A DNA stretch of 64,000 nt, taken from an uncultured Thermoplasmata archaeon. GTDB taxonomy: Archaea; Thermoplasmatota; Thermoplasmata; UBA10834. Shown in pieces: positions 47,317 to 58,271 of the stretch. A model generated the notes under the pieces. The model was not told the DNA's origin. It did not search any database and worked only from the letters and a program-made list of their open reading frames with translations. The stretch lies in NCBI GenBank assembly GCA_963719945.1, contig CAVRDX010000004.1, positions 160,001 through 224,000 of the forward strand, in the 5' to 3' direction. The stretch's first letter is position 1, and every line of letters begins with the position of its first letter. A program made the position numbers and the translations under genes.

Positions 47317-47388
47317 TGCGGCTGCCGGGATTCGAACCCGGGCTTGAAGCTTGGGAAGCTTCAGTCCTAACCACTAGACTACAGCCGC
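47317..47388 (-). tRNA. tRNA-Gly(CCC), intronless, CCA not encoded
   Basis: GCGGCTG acceptor stem, TAGTCTAGTGG D arm, GAAGC-TTCCCAA-GCTTC anticodon arm, GGTTCGAATCC T loop; TTTAAA box about 28 nt upstream. Confidence 0.96.
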
Positions 47389-48894: not shown

Positions 48895-49065
48895 TTACAG
48901 GCGTGCGCCTTCGAATTCTTCTTGGAGGTCTATGATCACTTGTTCAAGGATCTCCTCCAAGCTGGCGCTCCTGTACTCTCGCATTCCACCAAGGTCACTC
49001 TGAACTCTTGCAACATACGATGCGTTGCTCTTCAGAAACTCAACGTTGCACAAGGGCTCTTCCAT
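48895..49065 (-). CDS. 56-aa acidic microprotein (MEEPLCNVEFLKSNASYVARVQSDLGGMREYRSASLEEILEQVIIDLQEEFEGARL)
   Basis: GGGGTGA SD 6 nt before ATG; beta-beta-beta-alpha pattern; below the ORF-track cutoff. Confidence 0.75.
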   Translation of the reverse strand: MEEPLCNVEFLKSNASYVARVQSDLGGMREYRSASLEEILEQVIIDLQEEFEGARL

Positions 49066-49436
49066 CCGTGTTCACCCCATCTGGCCCAGGCACCACCCGA
49101 GGCCATGGTTAGCGCGCTGGTGCGCCATATATCCTCTATTATTTAGACCTTTCTTAAATTCCTTCCGGTGACCGGACGGGCCAGAATGCCGTCTGGCACG
49201 GGTCTGGGTCTGATGATGGGTGCCTTCAGGTCTGATCCATGCCCTCTAGCATACTCTACCTGACGGGTTTACAATGTTCAAGTTCGGCCAATGCCAGCGA
49301 CCAAGTATTATATATCGCAGCAACAGTAATCCCAGATCGATGAACTCGGCAGCCAATAGCCTTATCATAATTATAGGCTGATTCTTGCCCCCATTGCCGA
49401 GTTTGTATTAGAGGCCTTTTGGAGGGATTTGTTGTT

Positions 49437-52400
49437 ATGAAGAAGTACTACCGAGAACCTGCCGGCGAGACCTTCTCCGGCATAGAAGAGGAGGTTCTCT
49501 CTCTCTGGGGACAGGAGAGCATGCTGCTCAAGGTCAAGGAGCGGATGCGCGACGGTGCCCCTCTGTACTTCTGCGAAGGTCCCCCGACCGCTAAGAGCCC
49601 GCCCCATTTCGGTGACGCCCTCACGCGCGCGGTCAAGGATGCGTTCCTCAGGTTCCACATAATGAACGGTAGGCAGGTCCTGCCCTACATAGGCGGCTGG
49701 GACTGTCATGGGCTCCCAGTCGAGCTGGAGGTCGAGCGGTCTCTGGGACTGGGGAGCAAGGCCGATATCGAGCGATACGGGATCGAACCCTTCAATTCTC
49801 GATGCCGCGAGAGCGTCCTCCGCTACAAGGGAGATTGGGAGGAGATGAGCCGGAGGGTCGGCTACTGGATCGATTTCGAGAATGCCTACATGACCATGTC
49901 CAACGAGTACATCGAGAGCGTATGGTGGTCAGTCAAGCAATTGCATTCGAAGGGCTTGCTGGTAAAGGACAAGCAGGTCGTCCCTTACTGCCCAAGGTGT
50001 GGAACCACCCTGAGCACTCACGAAGTGGCATTAGGTTTCGGCGAGGTCGAGACCAGATACGTCGTCGCCCGTTTCCGGATCGACGAGCTGGATGCCAGCG
50101 CCCTGGTCTACACCGAGACGCCATGGACCCTGGTGGCGAACGCCCTGCTCGCGGTCGACGGAAACCAACGCTATGTGCTCATGGAATCATCCGGTGAGAG
50201 GTTGCTTCTCAGCGAACCTAGCTCGAAGGTATGGTTGCCTTCGTGCAAGGTGCTTCGCACCTTCTCCGGAACAGAGCTGGTCGGTCTATCTTATGTTCCA
50301 CCGTTCAATTACTCGGGACGGCCAGGCGATTCGTTCAAGATTGTTCATTCTGACGAGGTAACCAAGGAGGAAGGCACCGGGATAATGCACGTGTGCCCCG
50401 CATGCAGCTCGATAGATTTCGAGATAGCAGCGGCCGAGGGTCTCGAATTGTTCGATCCGATCGACGAGACCGCGAGTTTCACGCAGGAAATCCCCGAACT
50501 CGCCGGCAAGCTGGTCACAGACTCAAGCACTGATGTTATACGGATGCTAGAGGGCTCAGGGTCTTTGTTCAAATGGGGTCTGATGAAACGGTCATCACCA
50601 TTTTGCTGGAGGTGTCAAACCCCGCTCATCTACAAGCTAAGAGACGCCTGGCTCATAAAGGCTTCAGATGTGAAGGACGAGATGTCCAGATTGAACCAGA
50701 AGATCCGATGGGTGCCTGAGACCTTCCGGGACCTGAGGTTCGGAAACTTCATCGCGGACGCTAAGGATTGGGCAGTCAGCCGGAGTCGATACTGGGGGAC
50801 GCCGCTACCTATCTGGAGATGCACGGAGGGCCACGAATACTGTGTGGGTTCGGTCCAGGAGCTAAGGGATTCGTCCGAGTCCCCGGTTCCAGATGGATCG
50901 GACCTGCACCGTCCTTTCGTGGATGCCGTCACCCTCAGATGCCCACAATGTGGTAGGAGCATGAAGCGTGAGGAATTCGTCCTCGACTGCTGGTACGATT
51001 CCGGGTGCGCGCCATTCGCCCAATACCACTACCCGTTCGAGAACAAGGATGTGTTCGATTCACACAGGTCATTGGATTTCATATCGGAATCAGTGGAGCA
51101 GACTCGCGGATGGTTCTACACACAGCATGTGTTGAGCACCCTGCTATTCGATGCTCCAGCGTTCACTTCCGTCCTTGTGATGGGTAACGTGCTCGGTGCC
51201 GATGGGAAGAAGATGAGGAACGTGCACAAGAACACGGTTTCACCGTCCGAGGTGTTCTCGTCCGTCGGTGCGGATGCATCAAGACTCTATCTCCTTGGAA
51301 GCCCGACGTGGGAGTCTGTTCAATTCTCGGAGGAGGATGTGAGGAAGACGATGGTCGGCACGCTCAAGACGCTCCTCAATGTCTACGCATTCTACGCATC
51401 CAATGCCAACGCTTACGGTTATACTGGCCAGGAGGCTGGAACCAAGACTCACGACCTGGACACCTGGATCCTATCCCGATTGAACACGACCATCGTTGAG
51501 GCCAGGAACGGATTCGACGACCTCGAGGTCCACCGGGCAGTGAACTCGGTAAGGGAGTTCGTGGAGGATTTGAGCAACTGGTATGTTCGCAGGTCCAGGC
51601 GCAGGTTCTGGGTCGAGAGCGATCCACTCGACCGCTTCTCCGCACATTCCACGCTCCATGAATGCCTCACGATATTGTCCAGAATAATGGCTCCGATCAC
51701 ACCTTTCTTCGCGGACTGGCTCTATAGAAACCTGAAAGGGGCCAAGGGAAGCGTGCATCTCGAGGACTATCCAATCGCTAACGAGGAACATTCCAACAAA
51801 CCGCTTGAGCTGCAGATGGCCATTGTTCGGAGGGCAGTCGAAGCCGGCCGTCTGGCCCGTCAGAACGCAAACATAAAGTTGAGACAGCCGCTCGAAGAGG
51901 TAGTGATAGCCGCCAGCAATGACGATGTATGGACGCTTCGCAGATATGAGAAGATGATCTCCGAGGAGCTGAATGTCCGATCAGTGAAGTGCATCGAATC
52001 CAGGGAGAGCATGGTGGAGTATACCATATCGGCGAACCTCAGGACCCTCGGTCCGAGGTTCAAGGAAGGGGCCGAGGAGGTCTCGAAACTGCTCGAGATG
52101 GTCGATGGTAGCGAACTGGTTAGACACCTGAAGACGAAGGGAAGGCTGCGTCTGGGAGGCTACGACCTCTACGAGGAGGATGTCATCATCAGCGAGACGC
52201 AGAAATCAGGATACACCCACGCATCGATGGATGACATGCATGTCTACTTCTCGACCAAGATGAATGCGAAGCTCAAGATGGATGGCCTCGCTAGAGAAGT
52301 CATCAGACGAGTACAGCACATGCGAAAGGAGCAGGGTCTGGCTTTCGATGACCTCGTCGTCGTGGAGTATTCGGCCCATCCGGACATCGAGGCGGCCATC

Positions 52401-52529
52401 GTCGCCCATAAGTCCCGTCTGGAGACGGAAACGCATGCGAAAACCTACTCGAAGTCCACCTCGCTCCAAGATGCCAAGAAGTGGACGGTCAACAAGATGC
52501 CGCTCGAGCTTGTGGTCAGGAGACTCTGA
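49437..52529 (+). CDS. ileS: Isoleucyl-tRNA synthetase-like protein (archaeal/type 2) with degenerate HIGH and KMSKS motifs
   Basis: GPP, GWDCHGLPVE, CWRC.TPLIY, DWAVSR.RYWG, DCWYDSG, QTRGWF, SNWYVRRSRRRFW; HFGD and KMRNV replace HIGH and KMSKS. Confidence 0.9.
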   Translation: MKKYYREPAGETFSGIEEEVLSLWGQESMLLKVKERMRDGAPLYFCEGPPTAKSPPHFGDALTRAVKDAFLRFHIMNGRQVLPYIGGWDCHGLPVELEVERSLGLGSKADIERYGIEPFNSRCRESVLRYKGDWEEMSRRVGYWIDFENAYMTMSNEYIESVWWSVKQLHSKGLLVKDKQVVPYCPRCGTTLSTHEVALGFGEVETRYVVARFRIDELDASALVYTETPWTLVANALLAVDGNQRYVLMESSGERLLLSEPSSKVWLPSCKVLRTFSGTELVGLSYVPPFNYSGRPGDSFKIVHSDEVTKEEGTGIMHVCPACSSIDFEIAAAEGLELFDPIDETASFTQEIPELAGKLVTDSSTDVIRMLEGSGSLFKWGLMKRSSPFCWRCQTPLIYKLRDAWLIKASDVKDEMSRLNQKIRWVPETFRDLRFGNFIADAKDWAVSRSRYWGTPLPIWRCTEGHEYCVGSVQELRDSSESPVPDGSDLHRPFVDAVTLRCPQCGRSMKREEFVLDCWYDSGCAPFAQYHYPFENKDVFDSHRSLDFISESVEQTRGWFYTQHVLSTLLFDAPAFTSVLVMGNVLGADGKKMRNVHKNTVSPSEVFSSVGADASRLYLLGSPTWESVQFSEEDVRKTMVGTLKTLLNVYAFYASNANAYGYTGQEAGTKTHDLDTWILSRLNTTIVEARNGFDDLEVHRAVNSVREFVEDLSNWYVRRSRRRFWVESDPLDRFSAHSTLHECLTILSRIMAPITPFFADWLYRNLKGAKGSVHLEDYPIANEEHSNKPLELQMAIVRRAVEAGRLARQNANIKLRQPLEEVVIAASNDDVWTLRRYEKMISEELNVRSVKCIESRESMVEYTISANLRTLGPRFKEGAEEVSKLLEMVDGSELVRHLKTKGRLRLGGYDLYEEDVIISETQKSGYTHASMDDMHVYFSTKMNAKLKMDGLAREVIRRVQHMRKEQGLAFDDLVVVEYSAHPDIEAAIVAHKSRLETETHAKTYSKSTSLQDAKKWTVNKMPLELVVRRL

Positions 52530-52998
52530 CCTTCTTCTTCGGTCCCTTGGATATCGATTTCTCCATCAGGTATGCGTGCTTCTTGGCGCCGTAATAATCC
52601 TTCACCATGGTCTTCAGGACATACCCGTGTTTGAGGTATAGGTTGATGGCTGCGGTATTCTCTATGCCGACCTCGAGGCCACTCTTCCGAACCCCTAGGA
52701 TCGCCATCCTCTTCTCGCATTCAATCAAGAGGCGCGAACCAAGCCCCTTCTCGCGTCTGCCATCCATGACTGCTACGGAAGCTATGCGTCCTTCCCCGCA
52801 CCTCTTCGAGAACATGCACATGGCCGCCCCTATGATCGCCCGTTCGTCGACAGCGACCAACGCTATGGTATCGTTCCTGACGACGAATGCGGTGACGGTC
52901 TCCTGCTCGAACCGTCTCTCATCGAAACATTCCGCCTCCAAGCGCATGATGCCTGGCAGGTCCTTCATGGTGGCGACCCTAACCTTCACAGACGGCAT
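52516..52998 (-). CDS. RimI-like GNAT N-acetyltransferase
   Basis: IASVAV...R.KGLG, LEV...N..AI.LY.KHGY, DYY. Confidence 0.88.
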   Translation of the reverse strand: MPSVKVRVATMKDLPGIMRLEAECFDERRFEQETVTAFVVRNDTIALVAVDERAIIGAAMCMFSKRCGEGRIASVAVMDGRREKGLGSRLLIECEKRMAILGVRKSGLEVGIENTAAINLYLKHGYVLKTMVKDYYGAKKHAYLMEKSISKGPKKKVRVS

Positions 52999-57701: not shown

Positions 57702-58271
57702 TCAACGATACTGGTCGATCAGCTTCATCATATCCTTCTCGAGGCCGACGCTCATGGCTGGAGCCTCGATCACTTCCACGTTCCTCTCAAGAAGTGCCAG
57801 CTCCTTCTCGCTGAAGGCGTCTGGGCTTATCGGTATCAGGACCACTGACTTGCTCTGCATGACCTGCTCGTTTATGTGCTCGGCGAACCTGAGCACCTGC
57901 TGGAATCCGTTGTTGATCACCAGGTACTCGAGCCCGTCGATGATGACGACGCACTTCTCGTACCTCTCGATGAACGAGGAGATCATGGTCGCGAGCGTGC
58001 CTATGCTGGTCGGGTTGTGATGGTCCTTTCCCGGGGTGTGGCTCAACCACAGGATGCGCGTATCGCCCAGATCGAAAGCCTCTTTGACCTTCTCAGGGTA
58101 CTGACGGGTGACGCATAATCCCGGAATGCTGTCAGAAATCGCGTTCTCAAACAGTTTGTAGGATAGGAAAGGCTTCCGCTCCCTGACTACGTAACACATT
58201 CCCGCTTCGGGACGGATCAGCTCCATCTGGTTCGAGATCTTCTCTTCCGAACCGATGTCCTTATCCTCCAC
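57702..58271 (-). CDS. Stand-alone DUF835 domain protein
   Basis: GLCVTRQYP, LWLS, PT.I, IIDGLEYL...NGF, LALLER. Confidence 0.88.
   Translation of the reverse strand: MEDKDIGSEEKISNQMELIRPEAGMCYVVRERKPFLSYKLFENAISDSIPGLCVTRQYPEKVKEAFDLGDTRILWLSHTPGKDHHNPTSIGTLATMISSFIERYEKCVVIIDGLEYLVINNGFQQVLRFAEHINEQVMQSKSVVLIPISPDAFSEKELALLERNVEVIEAPAMSVGLEKDMMKLIDQYR

Follow-up and report, generated by a model that had tools for sequence, protein, structure and literature searches.

In a 64,000-nucleotide stretch of the genome of an uncultured Thermoplasmata archaeon (contig CAVRDX010000004.1, positions 160,001 to 224,000; hereafter the window, whose own numbering is used below), the open reading frame at positions 49437-52529 encodes a second, full-length isoleucyl-tRNA synthetase (IleRS) of the IleRS2 clade. 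Its orthologs have all lost an intact KMSKS motif, and they keep the isoleucine pocket, the zinc sites and the residues that read the anticodon. The gene is under purifying selection and is preceded by an unannotated leader reading frame with a run of isoleucine codons. We give about an even chance to the reading, based on sequence comparison, that the product is an Ile-tRNA-regulated, near-inactive IleRS2 which is retained as an accessory binder of tRNA-Ile and isoleucine, i.e. a buffer or sensor.

Motif loss and retention in the IleRS2-clade protein

The initial annotation of the window, made from the letters alone, described an intact IleRS paralog with a degenerate synthetic site. The frame is indeed free of stops over 1030 residues, and the quoted motifs were recovered at the following positions, together with further features of the protein:

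49437-52529, forward strand: IleRS2-clade protein of 1030 residues with degenerate ATP signatures, according to reading frame, profile, tree and structure model
49605-49616, forward strand: HFGD at the HIGH position, the fourth-position His replaced by Asp; Asp in 28/112 orthologs, through about seven changes on the tree
49695-49718, forward strand: GWDCHGLP of the isoleucine pocket (D89), invariant in 114/114 orthologs
50109-50129, forward strand: threonine-rich editing peptide YTETPWT, with equivalents of T241, T243 and T246 present and that of T242 lost
50373-50417, forward strand: second editing peptide (GTG..D) with H318 (= H333) and D327 (= D342), found in 19/115 and 113/115 orthologs, respectively
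51087-51116, forward strand: ribose- and isoleucine-binding segment with E551, E554, Q555 and W559; E551 and Q555-F560 invariant in 115/115 orthologs, position 554 Asp in 107
51210-51224, forward strand: KMRNV at the KMSKS position, second Lys lost; KMSKS intact in 0/115 orthologs versus 28/28 intact Thermoplasmata IleRS2
51378-52340, forward strand: anticodon readers N648, F652, S713, R721, Q960, R963, K964 and L968, each in 110-115 of 115 orthologs

The residues of the isoleucine pocket were assigned from those of Thermus thermophilus IleRS. The protein scores 747 bits against the ileS profile, above the cut-off, and 168-187 bits against the leuS profiles, and by these scores it is not a homolog of leucyl-tRNA synthetase (LeuRS). 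Its domain order is that of type 2 (HUP, editing, anticodon and type-2 C-terminal domains, without the zinc-binding tail), and its predicted structure, with a predicted local distance difference test value (pLDDT) of 89.6, matches IleRS2 of P. megaterium (8C8V) over the whole length with a template modelling (TM) score of 0.93. With HFGD it carries neither form of the IleRS2 signature, HxGH or G/AxHH; databases annotate members of the family as ordinary isoleucine-tRNA ligases. HFGD and KMRNV are common to three other species with 92-93% identity to the protein, which excludes an assembly or sequencing error at these motifs. Two other changes pointed out initially are present here but are not general: in ESVEQ the residue is Glu554, for which the three closest relatives and most other orthologs have Asp, and Lys53 of GPPTAKS occurs in just 7 of 112 orthologs.

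Matches to the gene were obtained in 24/24 genomes of the host family in a first search and in 32/32 in a second one, most of them with two IleRS copies, and about 115 full-length orthologs with 57-93% identity were collected. The named orthologs belong to RBG_16_62_10 and RBG_19FT_COMBO_56_21, both of which have been placed in the order UBA10834 (10.1101/2020.03.09.984617), so that the host is probably a member of that order too. In a quick tree, calculated without bootstrap, the degenerate orthologs are monophyletic inside the Thermoplasmata IleRS2, with a value of 100 in the Shimodaira-Hasegawa-like approximate likelihood ratio test (SH-aLRT); degeneration of the HFGD/KMRNV type is family-wide and defines a clade, a possibility raised at the outset.

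KMSKS and HIGH are required for ATP binding and for the transition state of activation (PMC10485003). Besides the general absence of KMSKS, columns 594-598 of the loop are among the 7% most variable of the alignment. HxGH is retained in 66/112 orthologs and missing from 46, and in some members (e.g. L012, DMSD) both histidines are gone, yet the leader and the open frame are kept. P49, D89, W519, E551, Q555, W559, the zinc cysteines and the eight anticodon readers, whose roles were assigned from P. megaterium IleRS2 mutants (PMC13752280), are found in 110-115 of 115 orthologs or in all ungapped rows; retention of the isoleucine pocket, the zinc sites and the eight anticodon readers tested is 96-100%, and acceptor-end and ribose-contact residues are retained across the clade as well. 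Among 190 columns that are invariant in 42 intact IleRS2, 135 are conserved to at least 95% in a set of 58 non-redundant orthologs, and those lost are concentrated in the KMSKS loop and the editing domain (17 of 34 versus 9 of 156 columns; Fisher p 4e-9, the columns not being fully independent). The selective loss of ATP motifs claimed initially is borne out by this concentration in the ATP loop.

The canonical second ileS that was to be sought is present in the same genome, an assembly of 1.78 Mb that is 87% complete, on contig C1 (G000:C1:497616-501734, reverse strand). Following the scheme of PMC13752280, this copy is an IleRS-A and the 1030-residue protein an IleRS2. The view of the latter as a repurposed paralog holds insofar as another ileS stands beside it and the gene is not decaying, but it is no recent duplicate of the host enzyme: it stems from the IleRS2 lineage and is only 33% identical to the IleRS-A. 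The host IleRS-A has HIGT, AMSKS and a complete editing site, and because near-identical signatures occur in genomes in which an IleRS-A is the only IleRS found, we regard it as the working enzyme. It is intact in 19/19 host-family copies read. One family genome, 92% complete, seemingly lacks it, but there a contig ends inside the IleRS-A tail; likewise, three apparent cases of a degenerate copy on its own (G004, G007, G131) were rejected, as the IleRS-A is broken by contig ends. A division of tRNA recognition between the two copies is unsupported: IleRS-A keeps its own anticodon residues, and TiaS is present; the tRNA-Ile(GAU) gene of the host lies at C1:529039-529116. The host IleRS-A tail, of 320 residues, comprises two helix-hairpin-helix regions and a DUF835 domain, and the first Lys of its KMSKS is Ala or Thr throughout the host family.

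The degenerate IleRS2 clade is under purifying selection. Pairwise Nei-Gojobori ratios of non-synonymous to synonymous substitution rates (dN/dS) of the orthologs lie at 0.08-0.10 in comparisons with the nearest species, reach 0.22 in deeper ones and amount to 0.15 when pooled, far below 1; those of IleRS-A are 0.04-0.17, and the non-synonymous distance of the IleRS2 copy is about 1.8 times that of IleRS-A. Pseudogene decay or an assembly artefact, to which the faster evolution, a gene split into two frames in G019 and the absence of the IleRS2 copy from a search of three sister-family genomes (86-89% complete) might point, is hardly credible in view of some 115 full-length orthologs, the most distant of them 57% identical, these dN/dS values and the conservation of synteny and leader. 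The split gene (L025, G019:C1:584601-587686) comprises residues 1-689 and 689-1029 and is due to a frameshift or an assembly error.

The isoleucine-codon leader

Alignment of the upstream DNA of 33 family loci revealed a conserved block that corresponds to a short open reading frame. The region contains the following elements:

49308-49315, forward strand: TATA-like box; the leader ATG follows 32 nt downstream, and this spacing is 30-35 nt in all of the 33 family loci
49340-49381, forward strand: unannotated leader of 13 codons, four Ile codons followed by Gly and stop (MNSAANSLIIIIG), in 33/33 loci
49342-49404, forward strand: predicted stem P1, leader codons 1-4 (49342-49350) with 49396-49404; 95% of cells paired, changes on both sides in 4/9 pairs
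49405-49435, forward strand: predicted stem P2 over the ribosome-binding site (GGAGG, 49421-49425); 13 pairs, 82% of cells paired, weak in the host genome

Translation of the leader is probably leaderless and begins at the 5' end of the transcript, judging from a start site deduced from the sequence. Its length varies by whole codons between 11 and 15 in all loci, and its stop lies 54-57 nt (here 55 nt) upstream of the main start. In the last six codons of the 33 leaders 118 Ile codons were counted, against 20 in base shuffles (maximum 33 in 1000), and all three Ile codons are used (46/42/31). The leader codons are selected as amino acid. A covariance model of the region has a single hit in each family genome, in every case at ileS2, and one more before an intact IleRS2 of the Thermoplasmata family f16. 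Leaders with Ile codons also precede intact IleRS2 in families f16 (9/9), f9 (4/5), f18 (2/2) and f21 (3/3), from which it follows that the leader was in place before KMSKS was lost and has been kept ever since; the same survey gave no consistent Ile leader upstream of IleRS-A.

By analogy with known stalling leaders, it is likely that ribosomes halted at the Ile codons when Ile-tRNA is low raise the expression of ileS2. Folding shows that alternative helices exist in the leader RNA. Rfam contains no family that matched the leader region, and a literature search, in which subscription journals were thinly covered, found no published case of an archaeal ileS leader or of an archaeal leader-peptide attenuator. 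Two other interpretations of the upstream DNA were rejected: a C/D-box-like appearance of 49208-49268 is neither conserved nor linked to a specific target, and the bases of a supposed mimic of the tRNA-Ile anticodon arm are the last codons of the conserved leader frame. A second candidate leader was noticed on contig C1 (G000:C1:553807, forward strand), a 26-codon frame rich in Leu, Ile and Val that follows a TATA-like box and lies 24 nt before an acetolactate-synthase-like gene.

Possible roles of the degenerate protein

A reciprocal pattern is found in other Thermoplasmata. In two-copy genomes of families f9, f10, f12, f16, f24, f28 and f32 an intact IleRS2 is accompanied by an IleRS-A that has lost KMSKS, the damage to the latter ranging from mild to a full loss of the isoleucine pocket; early changes of IleRS-A occur in f21 and f22, and the single-copy genomes examined have intact motifs. 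Purifying selection acts on the degenerate IleRS-A genes as well (pooled dN/dS 0.08). We consider, more tentatively and at clearly less than even chance, the wider proposal that a spare IleRS has repeatedly become a non-charging tRNA-Ile binder in the Thermoplasmata, and that in the host family it became an isoleucine/tRNA-Ile sensor or buffer under an archaeal stalling attenuator. Full-length degenerate IleRS-A beside an intact IleRS2 (L032, L033, L111, L196, L200-L204) were noted in at least seven Thermoplasmata families besides that of the host; one degenerate IleRS-A has 2335 residues, with a long acidic insert before DUF835. Family f21 (L217, L218, L225) has a distant-branch IleRS2 with a GVHH motif of the hyper-resistance type and a five-Ile leader upstream, and the f21 IleRS-A beside it shows early decay.

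If the protein is a buffer or sensor, IleRS2 would have been made redundant for charging by the intact IleRS-A. Scarce Ile-tRNA would cause ribosomes to stall at the Ile codons of the leader and more of the IleRS2-type protein to be made, which, being near-inactive, would bind surplus uncharged tRNA-Ile via anticodon and 3' end, with the isoleucine pocket tuning its grip. Until isoleucine is available again, binding would shield tRNA-Ile and limit both mischarging with valine and futile cycles of ATP use at IleRS-A. In a comparison by eye, the host-family clade, unlike the degenerate IleRS-A, has retained the ribose Asp and all of the QTRGWF segment, which suggests that the isoleucine pocket is more constrained than a simple lag would give. 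Several points weigh against this reading. Ribosome-footprint masks at four positions did not open the ribosome-binding site in constrained folding, and as no switch could be modelled, the direction of control rests on analogy. The degenerate IleRS-A elsewhere lose KMSKS first and pocket residues later, so that part of the conservation of the isoleucine pocket may be structural. The requirements of the transfer step are all conserved, and a slow synthetase would depend on them too; moreover, a protein that holds tRNA-Ile in shortage could compete with IleRS-A.

Since the leader ties expression to the supply of Ile-tRNA, it leaves room for a residual synthetase, a slow, inducible back-up for times when IleRS-A is inhibited, for example by mimics of Ile-AMP, in which a basic residue before HIGH would partly replace the KMSKS lysine. 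Lys or Arg stands at positions 53-55 in 98/112 orthologs versus 2/28 intact Thermoplasmata IleRS2. A compensating lysine in the HIGH loop is known for ArgRS. The leaders before intact IleRS2 fit this explanation, as does the tendency of IleRS-A to be mupirocin-sensitive and of IleRS2 to be resistant (PMC13752280); moreover, IleRS2 tolerates altered HIGH motifs (PMC10485003), and full-length LeuRS signature mutants, about 3 kcal/mol weaker than the wild type, have residual activity left (PMC10450160). However, selection for charging should keep the rate-giving KMSKS lysine, but the columns of the loop belong to the most variable of the protein instead; the 46 orthologs without HxGH, some of them without either His, are equally hard to reconcile with charging. 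The basic residue may be a single ancestral change, and it is found in 5/14 intact bacterial IleRS2 and missing from 14 degenerate orthologs. Taken together, we consider a back-up synthetase rather unlikely.

The trans-editing factor suggested initially would use the connective polypeptide 1 (CP1) site to strip Val, or, with the selectivity residues lost, also Ile, from tRNA-Ile. As claimed, the editing Thr and Asp are retained in the window copy, which has all five key residues (T226, T228, T231, H318 and D327, corresponding to E. coli T241, T243, T246, H333 and D342; the T242 equivalent is Glu), and mischarging with Val rises in isoleucine shortage. T241 and D342 drive hydrolysis in E. coli IleRS, and H333/T246 mutants of that enzyme hydrolyse correct Ile-tRNA and edit in trans (PMC9023258). 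In the clade the hydrolytic pair is mostly kept (T241 in about 108 of 115 orthologs) and the selectivity residues H333/T246 are mostly lost. Against an editing role, the five residues are complete in 18/115 orthologs only, T242 is found in 9/115, the Thr-rich peptide has disappeared from several members, and dN/dS in the editing domain is the highest of the protein (0.21 versus 0.08-0.12 in active enzymes). The editing Asp also survives in the wholly dead IleRS-A copies of f10 and may thus be structural, and an invariant synthetic isoleucine pocket would be left unexplained. Editing is possible but would not be the common function of the clade, in which only one part of the protein is more relaxed than the editing site, and trans-editing as the main function appears improbable. 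Still less probable, to the point of being remote, is a protein that uses charged Ile-tRNA as isoleucine donor for another acceptor, as in the SbzA precedent (PMC9437257), or a decoy for Ile-AMP-like inhibitors. Neither role would need pyrophosphate binding, which fits the retained pocket and tRNA contacts, but the neighbours are housekeeping genes without a biosynthetic cluster, and invariant anticodon readers would be superfluous in a decoy.

Related systems and neighbouring genes

AlaX, YbaK/ProX and ThrRS-ed are free-standing editing domains with conserved hydrolytic sites; in contrast, the present protein keeps the whole synthetase body and has a relaxed editing site. E. coli pheM-pheST is controlled by a leader-peptide attenuator with a run of cognate codons. 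The present leader differs from such attenuators in that it is archaeal, that the gene controlled encodes a crippled enzyme and that the direction is assigned by analogy. In mycobacteria, stalling on leaderless poly-Cys short reading frames frees the downstream gene (10.1101/834739), and these share with the present leader a short frame at the transcript start, a run of cognate codons and structures over the downstream ribosome-binding site. The Ile-codon leader is a built-in clue to when the degenerate IleRS2 is wanted, and it also offers a compact candidate case, open to testing, of archaeal leader-peptide attenuation.

With P. megaterium IleRS2 (8C8V; PMC10485003, PMC13752280) the protein shares clade, domain order, fold, isoleucine pocket, zinc sites and anticodon readers; it differs in the loss of KMSKS in all orthologs and of HIGH in 41%, in relaxed editing selectivity and in always occurring beside an intact IleRS-A. 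Halobacterial NmLeuRS2 is, like it, an archaeal second full-length class Ia synthetase with a replaced KMSKS lysine (Ser in NmLeuRS2); NmLeuRS2 has very low activity and retains tRNA affinity (PMC4005665), and tRNA binding is predicted here from the residues. LeuRS-I of Sulfolobaceae is a further second class Ia synthetase of this kind, also full-length and with tRNA binding kept, but it still activates its amino acid, as summarised in PMC9437257. From both LeuRS cases the present one is set apart by the isoleucine system, by two ancient lineages, IleRS-A and IleRS2, in place of a LeuRS pair, and by a leader of amino-acid codons. At most, then, the degenerate IleRS2 works in a way like LeuRS2 and LeuRS-I without being a member of either; by descent it is an IleRS2. 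That no archaeal IleRS equivalent had been described, as the initial annotation supposed, agrees with our literature search, which found no paper on this protein family; nor does such an IleRS appear in the review PMC9437257.

For the question of what archaeal synthetase copies that do not charge, such as LeuRS2 and LeuRS-I, are there for, about 115 natural variants here separate the features kept (isoleucine pocket, reading of tRNA-Ile) from those given up (ATP loop, editing selectivity). Either outcome would be informative, a tRNA-Ile binder that does not charge and is under amino-acid control, or a working class I synthetase without KMSKS; the combination of a sensor or buffer with an attenuator, if true, would be a starvation circuit made from a synthetase scaffold.

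The gene order around ileS2 is conserved, with genes for a UPF0147 protein, an AsnC-type protein and a 56-residue protein divergent upstream and GNAT and asnS genes downstream. Among the neighbours the following were noted:

47317-47388, reverse strand: tRNA-Gly(CCC) gene
48895-49065, reverse strand: unannotated 56-residue protein, near-invariant in four family genomes and without a Pfam family; its Atlas neighbours are hypothetical proteins of Thermoplasmatota
52516-52998, reverse strand: RimI-like GNAT, the 3' end of which overlaps the ileS2 stop by 14 nt, a convergent layout kept in the family
57702-58271, reverse strand: family-conserved, stand-alone DUF835-type gene before cdc6, sharing its domain with the IleRS-A tail

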